From contig OZ255827.1 in assembly GCA_965277625.1 (NCBI GenBank), positions 1,608,550-1,672,549 on the forward strand: 64,000 bases of DNA. Direction: 5' to 3'. Below are positions 3,257 through 28,203 of this stretch, piece by piece. Position 1 is the stretch's first letter. Every line of letters starts with the position of its first letter. The notes beneath the pieces were generated by a model. That model saw nothing but the letters and a program-made list of their open reading frames with translations, ran no database searches and was not told the DNA's origin. This DNA comes from Gammaproteobacteria bacterium. GTDB lineage: Bacteria; Pseudomonadota; Gammaproteobacteria; CAKMZV01. The translations under genes were made by a program, and so were the position numbers.

Positions 3257-5065
3257 ATGAATACATTCCGAAACATAGCGATAATTGCGCATGTTGACCA
3301 TGGCAAAACCACTTTGGTTGATGCTTTGCTCAAACAAAGTGGTACTTTTGATGCACACCAAGTGGTTGAGACTCGCGTCATGGATTCCTTTGACCAAGAG
3401 AAGGAACGCGGCATCACCATCTATGCTAAAAATACCGCGCTGCAGTTTGAAGATTGCAAAATTAATATTGTTGACACCCCTGGGCACGCCGATTTCGGTT
3501 CTGAAGTTGAACGGGTATTGCGGATGGTCGATTCTGTTCTTTTGGTCGTGGATGCCTATGAAGGCCCCATGCCACAAACCAAATTTGTGCTGAGTAAATC
3601 TTTGGCCATGGGTCATAATCCCATTGTGATCATCAATAAAATTGACAAACCTTCTGCTCGCCCTGATTGGGTCATCGATCAATTGTTCGATTTATTTGTT
3701 ACATTGGAAGCCACCGATGCCCAGTTGGATTTCCCCATTTGCTACACCGTTGCCAAACAAGGCATTGCAGGTTTAGAAACCAATGAAATGGCAGACAACA
3801 TTACTCCACTTTTTAGAGTCATCATGGATAAAGTCCCACCGGCTCAATCTAATATCAGCAAACCGTTCAAGATGCAAGTCACCAACTTGGCCTATGATAA
3901 CTTTTTAGGTCGGATGGCCGTTGGTCGGGTGTACGAAGGATTGGTCAAGCGCAATCAAGAAGTGACCGTTCTCACCCAAGATGGCAAAATCAAGACCGCC
4001 AAAATCAGCGAAGTGTTGACTACGGTTGGCTTACAACGCATCAAGGTTGAACAAGCCGTCAGTGGCGATATCGTCACCTTAGCAGGGATCAGTGATATTT
4101 ATGTGGGAGATACCATCAGCGCTGATAAAAAAACGCATCCCATGCCCGTCATCGCCATCGATGAACCCACTTTAAAAATGACTTTTATGGTCAATTCATC
4201 TCCCTTTGCTGGACAAGACGGCAAGCTATTGACCTCAAGACAAATCCGCGAACGCCTTGAACGAGAATTGGAAGTCAATGTCGGTATGAGTATGGACTTA
4301 TCCAATCCCGATGCATACGTGGTTTGTGGCCGAGGAGAACTGCATTTATCGGTTTTGATTGAAAGCATGCGCAGAGAAGGTTTCGAGCTACAAGTCGGTG
4401 CACCCGAGGTGATATTCAAAGTGATTGACGGCAAAAAAATGGAACCGTGCGAGCGCGTAAATATCTTTGTTCCTTCCGAATTCTCTGGCTCAATCATTGC
4501 AGAGCTCAGTAAACGCAAAGGCGAATTATTAAATCTACAAGACAATAATGACACCACGCACATTGAATACTTGATTCCCAGCAGAGGATTATTGGGTTTT
4601 AAATCACAATTTACTTCCATGACCAAAGGCGAAGGTATTTTATCCTCGGTTTTTGACAGCTATGCCCCCCATAAGGGTGAAATTGAAAGACGCGATGTTG
4701 GTAGCATGATTTCTGGAGAATCAGGCACTGCCATGGCTTATAGTTTGTGGAATTTGCAAGAACGAGGCCCCTTATTCATTCGGGCAGCCACCCCCATTTA
4801 CGAAGGCATGATCATTGGCGAACACCTCAAAGGCGGTGACCTTAATGTTAATGCCACCAAGAATAAAAAATTAACCAATGTGCGCGCTTCTGGTAAGGAT
4901 GATGCGCTTAATTTGGTCCCCATCCGCGAAATATCATTGGAACAGGCCATCGATTATATTGGCGAAGATGAATTGGTCGAAGTGACACCTAAAAATATAC
5001 GGCTCAGGAAAAAATACTTGCGCGAATCTGATCGACGCAGAGCCAAGCGTGGCTTGACCAAATAG
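3257..5065 (+). CDS. bipA: Translational GTPase BipA/TypA
   Basis: 602-aa ORF. N-terminal G domain ([32 protein letters not shown]) followed by EF-G-like domains. Length typical of BipA. Confidence 0.95.
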
Positions 5066-5692
5066 GTTTGGCCTAACTCACTCAAAAAAAGCGTCTTTAA
5101 TCATTAACAAACGCATTTTGAATGATGACATCAAAGCGGGGGTCTGTAAAGCTTGATAAAAGATTTATAAAAACTCATCAAGTGTTTATAAACGCTTAGT
5201 TTTTATCAACAGCTGTGACCTTGATGAAATCTCTCAATGTCATAAAATGACCCCTCTACTCTTCCAAGAGACTGTAAAAAAAGTTACTGTCTAGCTTGCT
5301 AAGAGCGATTATTTCCTCTACCACCACCTGAAGGATTACCTGTGGTTGATGGCCCATTAGGCGGTCTGTCGTTTGAGTGAATGATCATGATTAATCTCCT
5401 TTATATGATTTAAAAAAATAAGTTTAACACATTAAAGCGCTTAAAAGCATAGAAAAGCCATCTTATTTTCTATAAACCTTTAAAGTAAAGGATTGTCAGT
5501 CCCTTCAATGGTTCAATGAACGCTCTGTATAAACAAGACCAAAATCTGCAACCGCAGTTTGGTCTACATCCCTGTACATATTTAGCCGACTTGATTAGCG
5601 AACAATTATCCTTTCTATAAAAAAGGTGAGGCTTTCCAAACAAACTGCTTAGCAGTTTATGTCGTTTTGAACTGAGGGCTGAAACCAAAAAA

Positions 5693-5726
5693 AAGCCACA
5701 ACTGAATTCAGCTGTGGCTTTTGAAT
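5693..5726 (-). terminator. Rho-independent terminator of the 23S-5S rRNA transcript
   Basis: On the minus strand, GCCACAGCTGAA/TTCAGTTGTGGC forms a 12-bp stem around a central GAATTC, followed by eight T residues. It lies immediately 3' of the 5S rRNA. Confidence 0.75.
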
Positions 5727-5732
5727 TTAAAA

Positions 5733-5849
5733 GCCTGGCAATGACCTACTCTCACATGGGAACTCCCACACTACCATCGGCGCTAAGACGTTTCACTTCT
5801 GAGTTCGGTATGGAGTCAGGTGTTTCAATCTTGCTATGGTCACCAGGCA
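5733..5849 (-). rRNA. rrf: 5S ribosomal RNA
   Basis: Reverse complement matches bacterial 5S rRNA end to end (TGCCTGGTGACCATAGC...GAACTCAGAAGTGAAACG...CCCATGTGAGAGTAGGTCATTGCCAGGC). Confidence 0.9.
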
Positions 5850-5951
5850 AACTGGTAGAGACATTTAGTCTCATTATTTGGAACCAAGAACACGCTTGTC
5901 AATTCTTTGAATTTGATCGTCACCCTAATAATTCAGGTTATATTACCTAAA

Positions 5952-8838
<2,887 letters not shown>

Positions 8839-23204: not shown

Positions 23205-24911
23205 TCACTTTGGCCTATTGATTTCTTTTACGCCATCATGAAAACGAATGGACAGCGGTTGTGATGGTTGCAAATCTGCCGATCTAACGACGAACGATCC
23301 TTGTTGTGAAACCAAGGCAAATCCGCGTTTTAATATGTTTTGTGGATCAGCTTGACGCACCAATGCTCGATGGTGACTCAGACGAATTTTTTCCTCTTTC
23401 AATCTTTTTTTGGCTTGGGTGTTAATGGCCTCAGATATGCTTAAAAGCAGCCGCTGCTTTTGATTGACCAGATTCTTAGTCTGCAACTGTAATCGCCTTT
23501 GCAACTCAGACAACTGCCTCTTTTGTTGCTTCATTAGCGGCGCGACGCTTTGTATCACAGGTAAGTGCCCTTGTATTTGAGACCGTTTAGAGAATACCGC
23601 CTGCTTTGCTTGTATCTGAATCTGATGTTGTTGTTTCAATAAGGTTGTATGCTGTTGTTGTAAGGTGTTTCGTGCAAGGCTCAGCTGGTGTAATTGACTG
23701 TGCAGTTTTTGTCTTTGATGATATAAGATTTGCTGCACCCATAAAGGTACTTTGGTAAAGCTGAGCAATTGCTGTTGTGTGGTTTGAATGCTTGTTTTGG
23801 CATATGTTTGGATATATTGCCAATTGTTAAGCGCGTTTAACCCCGAATCCATAATGTGTCGATGGATGAATCCAGCCACCTTTGTCGGTGTTGAAAAATT
23901 TAACTTGGCCACTTCGTCTAAAATGGTTGAATCGGCATCATGGCCAATACCCACCAATACGGGTATGGGAAAGCGGCAAACGCTTTGTGCCAGTTCATAT
24001 TCATTCAAATAATGTAAGTCGCCTTTGGCGCCACCACCGCGAATAATGACCAATGCATCAAACGGCGCTTGCTCATGCCTAGATAAAATTTGTTGCAGTC
24101 CTTGGACGATCGTTTGGCTGGCTTCTCGACCTTGAAACTGTGCTGTGAAATACTCAAATGCGCAAAGCGCTTGTAAGGGATCGGCAATGCGACGAAAATC
24201 ACCCAAGGCATGCGCCTGCTGCGGGCTGATCACGGCAATTCGGAAAAAATCCATTGGCAATCTGTGCGCCGATTGCAATTTATACAATTGGGATTCGATC
24301 AGTCTTGACCTAATTTCTTTGAGTTTAATGGCCATTGCACCCAATGTATAAGTCGGGTCCACATCTTCAACCACTGCTGAAAATCCATAAACACTGTGCA
24401 TGCTGGCCTTGAGTTTAAAGAGTACTTGTAAGCTTTCTGCTAAGGGTTGATTGGCCTGCTGTTGAAATTTGCTGTGTATGGTTTTGGCGTTGGATGCCCA
24501 TATAACCGTTCGCACCGAAGCAATTTTCTGTTTACGCTCGCTTTGTTCATATTCACTCAGAACAAGGTAGTAATGCCCCGATGCGCTTTTGGTAATGCTT
24601 TCAATCTCTGCTTTGACCCACTGACCATGGCTGTACAATTTTTTCACCATGGTATTTAAGGGTTCGAGAAAATCTGTGAGTTTGATGCCTTCATCTATCT
24701 GCCCTAAGGGCAAGGCGATATTTTCAGATACAACCGTCTTATTAATAGGCTGAAAACCCCTGTAATCATCATTTGGCAACCACTGCTTGAACATTGATAA
24801 ATCTGCGCTTTGGTTGATATACCAAAGCTGTTTGGCGGCATCCCAGCGTGCGCCCAGACTCTTAGCCTTATCTTTGTCTATATAAGGCACTTTTAAATAT
24901 TGTTTTTCCAT
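23205..24911 (-). CDS. xseA: Exodeoxyribonuclease VII large subunit with an N-terminal DUF5710-like extension
   Basis: 568-aa ORF. Residues from about 70 onward are collinear with E. coli XseA (OB fold, catalytic core IIRGGG, Q-rich coiled-coil tail). The first 60 or so residues (KVPYIDKDKAKSLGARWDAAKQLWY) resemble the small domain found at primase and topoisomerase C-termini. Confidence 0.8.
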   Translation of the reverse strand: MEKQYLKVPYIDKDKAKSLGARWDAAKQLWYINQSADLSMFKQWLPNDDYRGFQPINKTVVSENIALPLGQIDEGIKLTDFLEPLNTMVKKLYSHGQWVKAEIESITKSASGHYYLVLSEYEQSERKQKIASVRTVIWASNAKTIHSKFQQQANQPLAESLQVLFKLKASMHSVYGFSAVVEDVDPTYTLGAMAIKLKEIRSRLIESQLYKLQSAHRLPMDFFRIAVISPQQAHALGDFRRIADPLQALCAFEYFTAQFQGREASQTIVQGLQQILSRHEQAPFDALVIIRGGGAKGDLHYLNEYELAQSVCRFPIPVLVGIGHDADSTILDEVAKLNFSTPTKVAGFIHRHIMDSGLNALNNWQYIQTYAKTSIQTTQQQLLSFTKVPLWVQQILYHQRQKLHSQLHQLSLARNTLQQQHTTLLKQQHQIQIQAKQAVFSKRSQIQGHLPVIQSVAPLMKQQKRQLSELQRRLQLQTKNLVNQKQRLLLSISEAINTQAKKRLKEEKIRLSHHRALVRQADPQNILKRGFALVSQQGSFVVRSADLQPSQPLSIRFHDGVKEINRPK

Positions 24912-26362: not shown

Positions 26363-27016
26363 ATGAGCATGCCTAATAATGCCCTTTTGACTTTATATTC
26401 AAATCCAACGTGCCCCGATAGCCATCGTGTTAGATTCTTAGCGTCTGAAAAAGAAAATTTAGTTGAAATCATCAACATATTCCCGCACGATTTACCCGAA
26501 GAACTCATCAATGCAAACCCTTACGGTACACTTCCAACGCTGATTGACAAAGACGTGGTGTTACGAGACGCTCAAGTCATGATGGAATATCTTGATGAAC
26601 GTTTTCCCAGCCCAACATTCATGCCGGTTGACCCCATTTCCAGAGCAAAAGTACGTATGATGTTGGTCAATATTCGCGAATCTTGGCTACCGCACTTTAT
26701 GGTTTTAAATGACATGAAATCCAGCGAAAAGAAACAGCAAACCGCCATTAAAGAAATCGGTAAAAATTTATTGGAACTGAAACCAACTTTTGGGCATTAT
26801 AAATTCTGTATGAGTAACAGCTTTACCTTGATTGATATTTCCCTTTCAGTCATTCTCTGGCGCCTTGACCATTACGGCATTGACTACAGTCATATGGGCA
26901 TACATTTTAATAAATACATGCACGAAATCTTTTCCAGAAAAGCTTTTGCTGCCAGCCTGTCTTTGTTTGAAGAAAACATGCGAATAATTCCAGAAACCGT
27001 CACCAACGATTCATAA
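26363..27016 (+). CDS. sspA: Stringent starvation protein A (GST-like)
   Basis: 217-aa ORF collinear with E. coli SspA (LPTLIDKDVVL, MEYLDERFP-P-MPV). A TACAAT-GCGCGC promoter-like element lies upstream at 26195-26206. Confidence 0.8.
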   Translation: MSMPNNALLTLYSNPTCPDSHRVRFLASEKENLVEIINIFPHDLPEELINANPYGTLPTLIDKDVVLRDAQVMMEYLDERFPSPTFMPVDPISRAKVRMMLVNIRESWLPHFMVLNDMKSSEKKQQTAIKEIGKNLLELKPTFGHYKFCMSNSFTLIDISLSVILWRLDHYGIDYSHMGIHFNKYMHEIFSRKAFAASLSLFEENMRIIPETVTNDS

Positions 27017-27045
27017 ATTAGCAACAACCTACTGGGTTATAGCCC

Positions 27046-28203
27046 ATGATTAAAAAGAATCCAGTCAGCCTCATCGTTGGCTGTGGCCGAATAGGCAACC
27101 TCATTGCCATACAGCTTGAAAACAAGCGCCATCAAGTCATTGGATTACGTAGAAACATTCAAAATCTCATTTCGGGCGTTGAGGGCTTCGGTGCTGACAT
27201 CACAGAACCCTTGCCTGATTTACCCGAAGTCGATCATTTCATCTATTGCCCAGCACCACAACGAAAATCCGAAGCCGACTACCAACGTCTCTACTACGAA
27301 GGTCTGCAAAACTGCATCAATGCCTTCACCATAAAACCTAAAAAATCTTGGGTCATATCCTCAACTCGGGTTTACAGTGAAAACCAAGGCGCCTGGGTCG
27401 ATGAGCAAACGCAATTAAACCCCAGCGATCAAAAACAGCGCATCTTAATTCAAATGGAGCAACTCGCTCAAACAGAATTATCCGCGTGTATTCTAAGATT
27501 GAGTGGCATCTACGATCAAAGCTCTGAACGCTTAATAAAATGGGCACAACAATCAGCCTATCCTTTTGCTGAACAGCATTGGAGCAACAGTATTCATGCG
27601 CAGGATGCAGCAAATGCTGTGGTACATCTGATGCACGTCGCTGACTCAAAACTTTATTTGATTTCAGATCAACAGCCCATAACCATGCAAGAAAAAATGG
27701 CAGCCATCTGCCAACAACTTGATTTACCTGCCGCACAAGCCATGCAGCCTGCTCAGACGACGGGCAAAAGAATCGCCACAACAAAATTAGCAGCCAGTGG
27801 CTTTGAGTGGCTCTACCCCAATGCCGGCCTTGGCTATCAATCAATCACCGAACAGCACCTTCAATTAGCCAAACTGACCGCTTTTCAAAGAAAGGTCCTA
27901 CAAATGACACAAGGTATTCCCTATGGCAAAGTCGTCAGTTATAAAATGCTTGCCGAATTAGCTGGCTCACCACGTTCTGCGCGGGCGGTGGGACAAACTT
28001 TGGCTATTAACCCTTGTGCGCCAGGCATTCCCTGCCATAGAGTCATCAGTAGCAATCGAACATTGCATGGGTTTTCTCAAGGTACTTCAGATGATAAACT
28101 TTTGGACAAGGTTAATCGCTTAAAAGCAGAGGGCATTCAATTGAAAAAAAGCCATGCGTTGATGAAGTATAAAGTGCCGAGAGACTATTTTTGGCAAATA
28201 TAA
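27046..28203 (+). CDS. Fusion protein: N-terminal NAD(P)-binding Rossmann (atypical SDR-like) domain + C-terminal O6-alkylguanine-DNA alkyltransferase (MGMT_C) domain
   Basis: Residues 1-260: GxGxxG-like LIVGCGRIGNLIA and an RLSGIYD motif. Residues 270-385: TAFQRKVLQ...IPYGKVVSY..LAE.AGSPRSARAVG...NP....IPCHRVISSN, which is collinear with Ogt/Ada-C and retains the PCHR active-site Cys. Confidence 0.7.
   Translation: MIKKNPVSLIVGCGRIGNLIAIQLENKRHQVIGLRRNIQNLISGVEGFGADITEPLPDLPEVDHFIYCPAPQRKSEADYQRLYYEGLQNCINAFTIKPKKSWVISSTRVYSENQGAWVDEQTQLNPSDQKQRILIQMEQLAQTELSACILRLSGIYDQSSERLIKWAQQSAYPFAEQHWSNSIHAQDAANAVVHLMHVADSKLYLISDQQPITMQEKMAAICQQLDLPAAQAMQPAQTTGKRIATTKLAASGFEWLYPNAGLGYQSITEQHLQLAKLTAFQRKVLQMTQGIPYGKVVSYKMLAELAGSPRSARAVGQTLAINPCAPGIPCHRVISSNRTLHGFSQGTSDDKLLDKVNRLKAEGIQLKKSHALMKYKVPRDYFWQI

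Follow-up and report, generated by a model that had tools for sequence, protein, structure and literature searches.

The window analysed here is a stretch of 64,000 nucleotides from contig OZ255827.1 of the gammaproteobacterial assembly GCA_965277625.1. On its forward strand lies a single complete open reading frame (ORF) in which an atypical extended short-chain dehydrogenase/reductase (SDR) domain is followed by the C-terminal domain of the O6-alkylguanine-DNA alkyltransferases (AGTs), the family of human MGMT. The original prediction, made from the sequence alone, had described positions 27046–28203 as one ORF. This was confirmed; the ORF starts with ATG and encodes 385 residues, and the motifs quoted for it were all found: GCGRIG (residues 12–17), TAFQRKVLQ (278–286), IPYGKVVSY (291–299), ARAVG (312–316) and IPCHRVIS (328–335). 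The parts of the gene are as follows.

27046..28203, + strand: complete SDR-AGT fusion ORF, ATG start, 1158 nt, 385 residues (coordinates include the stop codon)
27046..27846, + strand: atypical extended-SDR domain of the 3GPI family, residues 1–267 (match to PDB 3GPI, Foldseek, family alignment)
27079..27096, + strand: GCGRIG, glycine-rich dinucleotide-binding motif (GxGxxG), residues 12–17; G12, G14 and G17 invariant in 18 of 18 aligned family members
27358..27366, + strand: SST motif, residues 105–107, the upstream Ser/Thr of SDR active sites; S105, S106 and T107 invariant
27823..27870, + strand: junction helix, residues 260–275, from the SDR end into the first MGMT helix; a helix in the AlphaFold2 model, with block confidence (pLDDT, predicted local distance difference test) of 86–90
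27847..28131, + strand: MGMT/AGT C-terminal (DNA_binding_1) domain, residues 268–362 (PF01035, TIGR00589; alignments to Ada-C 1SFE and M. tuberculosis Ogt 4WXC)
27940..27942, + strand: Tyr299, equivalent of human Y114, which promotes base flipping; invariant alignment column
27982..27984, + strand: Arg313, equivalent of human R128, the arginine finger of the helix-turn-helix recognition helix; invariant alignment column
28030..28041, + strand: PCHR active-site motif, residues 329–332, with Cys330 as the alkyl acceptor read from the sequence; invariant in the fusions and in reference AGTs
28132..28200, + strand: C-terminal tail, residues 363–385, ending KYKVPRDYFWQI; not in ordinary Ogt, common to three of four fusion clusters

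A word-indexed search of 5.8 billion proteins returned the cluster of the window protein as the sole full-length match, all other matches being stand-alone SDRs of about 280 residues. An exhaustive phmmer scan of 1.84 billion representatives at 50% identity found exactly four clusters with the fusion.

P0001: 95% identity, 385 residues
P0126: 44% identity, 381 residues
P0125: 43% identity, 379 residues
P0136: 30% identity, 376 residues

Each cluster holds 2–5 member sequences, that is, about a dozen sequences among some 15 billion. Pfam PF01035 is present in P0126, P0125 and P0136. PF01370 (Epimerase) scores above its cut-off of 20.9 bits in P0126 and P0136 (26.2 and 28.3 bits), as it also does in stand-alone relatives, and has no match in the window protein.

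The alkyltransferase half

The C-terminal domain matches PF01035 over residues 279–362 with 90.3 bits (E=7e-26, cut-off 27) and the NCBIfam model TIGR00589 'ogt' with 83.5 bits (cut-off 46.4), and its alignments to 1SFE, 4WXC and 1EH6 have E values of about 1e-11 to 1e-12. A Pfam search of the fusion protein gave no match to PF02870 (Methyltransf_1N), the canonical AGT N-terminal domain. The four fusions were aligned with single-domain relatives, two-domain Ogt proteins and what we take to be the sequence of human MGMT, the key positions of which match the HMMER alignments to 1EH6, 1SFE and 4WXC. Invariant columns were the F of TxFQ, Y299 (human Y114), R313 (R128), N322 (N137), PCHR (C330 being C145), K355 (K165) and L359, together with G294, A314, G316, P323 and P329. 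H331 corresponds to human H146 and E362 to E172, the latter being retained in at least 90% of the aligned sequences. The equivalents of human Y114, R128, N137, C145-H146-R147, K165 and E172 are all kept in the four fusion clusters, down to 30% identity. The domain is thus catalytically intact, as had been proposed. Because the catalytic columns are invariant and the ratio of non-synonymous to synonymous substitution rates (dN/dS) of this half is only 0.02–0.05 between the most divergent variants of the gene, Cys330 is very likely the reactive acceptor cysteine.

Two other identities for this half were rejected. The alkyltransferase-like (ATL) proteins lack the acceptor cysteine, whereas Cys330 is present here. 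An Ada-like regulator would carry an Ada_Zn_binding or HTH_AraC domain, for which no match was found in Pfam or NCBIfam; for the Ada model NF011964 the match was confined to the C-terminal 76 residues, with 59 bits against a cut-off of 345.

One segment sets the fusions apart from ordinary AGTs. The loop that follows the GF/GY-S motif is 3–5 residues longer in all four fusion clusters. It begins directly after Phe343 (human Y158), and residues 341–350 have a mean pLDDT of 64, the lowest in the C-terminal domain. In known AGTs, the stretch after the Y158 equivalent forms a wall of the alkyl-binding pocket. Since the lengthened loop is predicted to sit in this stretch, the substrate range of the fusion AGT may differ from that of known AGTs.

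A separate observation concerns a 93-residue, Cys-bearing single-domain MGMT protein (P0281), the gene of which overlaps the 3' end of a 416-residue UvrC-like gene by 23 nt (L094 2773–4282, GCA_041643315.1; also L095). The arrangement recalls the link between ATL proteins and nucleotide excision repair, here with PCHR intact.

The SDR half and its stand-alone relatives

The N-terminal half aligns to PDB 3GPI over residues 9–267 (E=2.9e-35), and more weakly to 3IUS. A Foldseek search of the PDB also placed 3GPI at the top (TM score 0.83, normalised to the target), followed by 3IUS, NDP-sugar epimerases/dehydratases, SDR39U1 and MAT2B. In Pfam, this half gave sub-threshold Rossmann-type matches only (ApbA, TrkA_N, F420_oxidored), and the AlphaFold2 model gives it a beta-alpha-beta secondary structure. 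The sequence and fold matches to 3GPI, in a protein without PF02870, bear out the proposal that this half is a Rossmann domain, here of the extended SDR type, and not a diverged MGMT N-terminal domain. The scores for both halves of the protein lie well outside what chance would give.

Invariant residues were determined in an alignment of 18 diverse sequences, the four fusions and 14 stand-alone members: L9, G12/G14/G17, S105-S106-T107, L134, E138, G154, N181, H184, D187, Y204, D208, K241 and P258. The fusions retain every one of them. On the cofactor side they keep GxGxxG, R35, D51, SST, Y156, N181, H184, D187 and K241-R242. The catalytic YxxxK motif, expected some 25 residues past SST, is absent from the whole family, and none occurs at residues ~128–133 of the window protein; the site reads 'SDQKQRI' in the window protein and 'FxG' in the stand-alone members. 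Because YxxxK is absent, the SDR is without classical SDR catalysis, and the label "atypical SDR" given to it at the outset is correct. Judged by these residues, the dinucleotide-binding core is kept and a dinucleotide is probably still bound; the conserved pair R35-R36, which follows beta-2, hints at NADP(H).

The substrate side differs. Two motifs common in stand-alone members, the aromatic-x-Gly ('FxG') near position 129 and the 'GPGR' that follows SGIY, are degraded in the fusions, and the window protein additionally carries R182S. This comparison with the stand-alone consensus is qualitative, as its stand-alone rows come mostly from one clade.

In the ±5 kb around 80 stand-alone SDR genes from metagenomic loci, neither an MGMT domain nor sspA/B was present. 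Matches that seemed to reach into the MGMT region in four of them (L012, L013, L016 and L034) proved spurious, as tblastn found no MGMT domain there. Two different, tightly coupled operon partners were found upstream, each making up 10 of the 35 upstream neighbours on the same strand: in one clade (48–92% identity) a NudE-like NUDIX hydrolase (for example at L022, L039, L068, L073 and L088), and in a different clade a Methyltransf_32 protein with 4-nt overlaps (for example at L012, L013, L016 and L027). Downstream, GreA/GreB is often the convergent neighbour. Outside the window, a 3GPI-like SDR of 452 residues (P0258) carries a C-terminal DUF4269 domain (PF14091, E=4e-46) instead of MGMT; because of it, this SDR family would have gained C-terminal partners more than once. 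These associations hint at a nucleotide-type ligand, without a link to DNA repair.

These data bear on the idea that the chemistries of the two halves are coupled, either because the SDR would use or sense NAD(P)(H) and so make DNA binding and repair depend on redox state, or because the MGMT domain would bring the SDR to damaged, flipped-out bases or to nucleotides for modification by the SDR. We hold this to be quite unlikely. The original prediction had itself suggested a coupling to redox or nucleotide-binding activity, or an MGMT module used for regulation or targeting; the evidence gathered here is neutral on both suggestions. The conserved dinucleotide-binding core speaks for it, and extended SDRs normally bind NDP-linked substrates; the NudE-like enzyme that shares an operon with one SDR clade is a hydrolase for ADP compounds, and the DUF4269 of P0258 has a putative nucleotidyltransferase-like GS..DxD motif. 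However, the lack of YxxxK and the degradation of 'FxG' and 'GPGR' specifically in the fusions make vigorous catalysis by the SDR less likely, no link to DNA-repair genes was seen at any of the 80 stand-alone loci, and no SDR is known to act on DNA.

Reality, selection and origin of the fusion

An unusual architecture in a metagenome-assembled source raises the concern that a frameshift or a chimera has wrongly joined two adjacent genes, as the original prediction had itself cautioned. Beyond this prior concern no evidence for such an artefact was found, and we consider its probability negligible. The 90%-identity cluster of the window protein comprises five distinct variants, each of 385 residues, from independent assemblies and at least four samples; among them are chromosomes of ~2.06–2.1 Mb, one of which is circular and labelled 101x. 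All five gene copies are 1158 nt long with zero indels and with no frameshift or stop between the domains, and synonymous differences accumulate across the junction. Between the window gene and the most divergent variant (L001, 95% amino acid identity), dS is ~0.16–0.17 in both halves, and dN/dS is 0.19 in the SDR half and 0.04 in the MGMT half. Both halves are therefore under purifying selection within one reading frame. The three more distant clusters show the identical architecture. GC content is even along the gene and across the neighbouring genes; together with the conserved synteny, this also led us to reject a recent horizontal insertion.

Several traits are common to the fusion clusters. 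The junction spacing is identical in all four, with [YH]P, 19 residues and then [ST]xF, and PCHR following 71–72 residues after YP. All four share the lengthened loop described above, and three of them share the C-terminal tail (KYKVPxxYFW), in which the window protein, P0001, P0125 and P0126 all have L372 and W383. Because junction spacing, loop and tail are held in common, they argue for one old, ancestral fusion event and not for repeated accidents. The AlphaFold2 model of the fusion, built from a 53-sequence alignment, has a mean pLDDT of 89.1 and a predicted TM score (pTM) of 0.83; no solved chain in the PDB spans both domains, as judged by Foldseek. High pTM, fixed junction and conserved tail suggest that the fusion is a rigid two-domain unit with defined inter-domain packing.

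As to the source of the MGMT half, neighbour-joining trees (about 100 columns, hence indicative only) grouped the fusion domains with Cys-bearing single-domain PF01035 proteins of 93–103 residues and not with two-domain Ogt. Because of this grouping, the trees suggest, within that limit, that an SDR gene captured a mini-MGMT gene lying downstream of it. No SDR gene adjoins the closest single-domain MGMT genes. Collapse of a conserved SDR and MGMT gene pair was rejected for this reason and because no MGMT domain lies within ±5 kb at the 80 loci of stand-alone SDRs.

An SDR gene might also have run into a mini-MGMT gene behind it when a stop codon was accidentally lost, without any further consequence, leaving two unrelated activities that are co-translated and independent. 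The extreme rarity of the fusion (4 clusters in 1.84e9 representatives) would agree with this, as would the finding that stand-alone SDRs and mini-MGMTs each work alone and are never neighbours elsewhere. A neutral fusion, however, would be expected to re-split or to vary in its linker, whereas this one has persisted at 30–44% protein identity with exact junction spacing, a common tail and a confident, compact model. Independence of the two halves is, in our judgement, improbable.

Genomic context, proposed function and known systems

The gene upstream of the fusion and the region that differs between lineages are given below.

26363..27016, + strand: sspA (stringent starvation protein A), 30 nt upstream of the fusion ORF; NCBIfam SspA match
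26363..27045 (with L007 5463–5987 and L008 5500–5997): region of difference, sspA being followed directly by the fusion gene in the window and by sspB in L007 and L008

The best NCBIfam match of the sspA product is SspA, full-length at 175 bits and under the equivalog cut-off. In the window the fusion gene is convergent with rsgA. The loci of P0125 (L007) and P0126 (L008) have the order sspA-sspB-fusion, with gaps of 13 nt and 3 nt, respectively, between sspB and the fusion. Thus sspA(-sspB) lies directly upstream of the fusion in three of the four lineages. No sspB was detected at the window site or anywhere in the 64 kb, and the window lineage may have lost or relocated it. A scan for terminator-like sites on the + strand between sspA and the fusion gene gave none (chance level). 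Co-transcription with sspA(-sspB), and with it expression in a starvation or stationary-phase programme, is probable. Stationary-phase control of alkylation-repair genes is known in E. coli (PMC4437013), and co-expression from a starvation operon would fit.

GatB was used to place the window genome. It is ~70–72% identical to that of the nearest named genera, the sulfur-oxidising gammaproteobacteria Sulfurivirga, Ectothiorhodosinus, Sulfurivermis and Sulfuriflexus, and 71–74% identical to GatB of genomes attributed to the other fusion clusters. Because these identities reach only ~70–74%, the fusion appears to be spread over a clade of family or order rank, made up of uncultured gammaproteobacteria with small genomes. 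At the P0136 locus (L009), an HMG-CoA synthase gene lies nearby (coordinates 1–299 and 4370–5716 cover both it and an HslU-like ATPase gene); the affiliation with Legionellales that was considered from this gene is not supported for the window genome by GatB. A role in anti-phage defence was also rejected, as there is no PADLOC match and the neighbours are housekeeping genes.

Two further observations were made in the window. Complete 23S (5968–8832) and 5S (5733–5847) rRNA genes lie at 5733–8832 on the − strand, and the remainder of the 64 kb yielded no 16S rRNA gene; the rRNA operon appears to be unlinked, with 16S apart from 23S-5S, as in some small-genome bacteria. XseA, the large subunit of exonuclease VII (23205–24911, − strand, 568 residues), has an N-terminal DUF5710 besides tRNA_anti_2 and Exonuc_VII_L, an arrangement conserved in related metagenome-assembled genomes.

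The reading that we favour, and consider rather probable, is that of a genuine, selected fusion that works as an O6-alkylguanine alkyltransferase, its SDR standing in for the dispensable, stabilising N-terminal domain. The C-terminal domain would bind DNA through its helix-turn-helix, and Arg313 and Tyr299 would flip the alkylated base out. The alkyl group would then move irreversibly to Cys330, activated by the His331/Glu362 network, in the one-shot reaction of AGTs. The substrate would be O6-alkylguanine and possibly O4-alkylthymine. The SDR is expected to sit where the canonical N-terminal domain would, and to take over its scaffold role in stabilising and capping. In AGTs this N-terminal domain shows little conservation. 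It stabilises both the fold and the contacts with DNA, may cap the active site and mediates cooperativity in binding, and activity does not strictly depend on it (PMC10779285). Because the canonical domain is not needed for the chemistry and serves to stabilise and cap, a scaffold is the most likely role of the SDR.

Several points weigh against this proposal. The SDR half is clearly under purifying selection and keeps all family-invariant residues, which would make it more than an inert scaffold. A protein that is used once and yet carries an enzyme potentially capable of many turnovers would be a waste, except where the SDR has no catalytic activity or the halves are coupled in their activities. 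The most distant fusion gene (P0136, 30% identity, at L009) is not beside sspAB, and has a gene for an HslU-like AAA+ ATPase upstream and type II secretion genes downstream. Finally, co-transcription with sspA is deduced from gene spacing and the lack of a terminator-like motif, the promoter scan being at chance level.

Selection on the SDR half and the rigidly conserved junction would also be expected if alkylation of Cys330 served mainly as a signal and less for bulk repair, with a change of conformation that toggles the SDR or an interaction with a partner, making the protein a damage sensor like Ada or Cada2. There are precedents: Caulobacter Cada2 is activated by methylation of the conserved PF01035 cysteine (PMC10957082), and alkylation disrupts contacts between the N- and C-terminal domains of AGTs (PMC10779285). 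Among atypical SDRs, NmrA/HSCARG and MAT2B are regulators, MAT2B being one of the Foldseek matches. Against such a switch, the protein has neither a sequence-specific DNA-binding domain nor an AraC/Ada-N domain, alkA, alkB and aidB adjoin the fusion in none of the loci, and the SDR has no known output. We therefore regard the switch as unlikely. Taken more broadly, a functionally coupled two-module machine, in which the SDR controls alkylation repair through its NAD(P)(H) state or Cys330 alkylation switches the SDR in a Cada2-like manner, the output being metabolic and not transcriptional, is given a small chance.

The fusion is of interest in several respects. AGTs are a textbook family of single-turnover repair proteins and the basis of the SNAP-tag. 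The natural, long-term replacement of their N-terminal domain by an unrelated Rossmann domain of 267 residues offers a ready test of the need for that domain. With it, a cofactor-binding partner joins the few described for natural AGT fusions (Ada, EndoV, histone-like), and a widespread orphan SDR family with two crystal structures gains a "Rosetta-stone" hint. If the halves are coupled, redox or nucleotide metabolism would be tied to the direct reversal of DNA damage, and the 3GPI/3IUS family would gain its first functional handle; if they are not, the fusion would be a curiosity limited to a small clade of uncultured gammaproteobacteria.

In the literature searched, neither an SDR-alkyltransferase fusion nor a function for 3GPI was found. 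The architecture is new to that literature, and the public sources that contain it give it no name; both domain families, and fusions of the AGT C-terminal domain, were already known. This agrees with the original prediction, which set the architecture apart from those of characterised alkyltransferases: a 2023 review of the family describes natural fusions of the C-terminal domain in Ada and with EndoV and a histone-like domain, as well as ATLs without the N-terminal domain, and mentions no SDR or dehydrogenase partner (PMC10779285).

Compared with Ogt, Ada-C and human MGMT (PF01035 with PF02870), the fusion has the same helix-turn-helix, arginine finger, tyrosine, asparagine hinge, PCHR cysteine and charge-relay glutamate. 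It differs from them by an SDR of ~267 residues in place of PF02870, a loop 3–5 residues longer and an extra tail of ~23 residues. The AGT C-terminal domain alone is also joined to another module in Ferroplasma AGTendoV, C. elegans AGT-2 (histone-like), Ada (N-Ada with AraC) and ATL-EndoV (PMC10779285). In the prokaryotic fusions, however, the partner is a DNA-repair or DNA-binding module, in contrast to the N-terminal dinucleotide-binding SDR without known nucleic-acid link found here. Cada2 of Caulobacter similarly has a PF01035 domain with a reactive cysteine attached to a non-AGT N-terminal module (PMC10957082), but that module is a DNA-binding, Ada-type box-binding domain regulating an adaptive regulon, neither of which is present here.

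The ATL proteins (Atl1, E. coli YbaZ/eATL) resemble the fusion in having a single MGMT-type domain without the AGT N-terminal domain and a C-terminal extension past the core, and Atl1 (3GVA) aligns to the fusion protein over residues 277–384. Their acceptor cysteine is replaced by Trp or Ala, whereas the fusion protein has PCHR. The counterparts of the SDR half, 3GPI of Methylobacillus flagellatus and 3IUS of Silicibacter pomeroyi, are structural-genomics proteins described as 'NAD-dependent epimerase/dehydratase', and 3GPI is homologous to the whole N-terminal half. They share with the fusion the GxGxxG, SST, SGIY, N-x-I-H-x-x-D and GKR motifs and the lack of YxxxK. In contrast to the fusion, the members of their family are stand-alone proteins of ~280 residues, which end where its junction helix begins.

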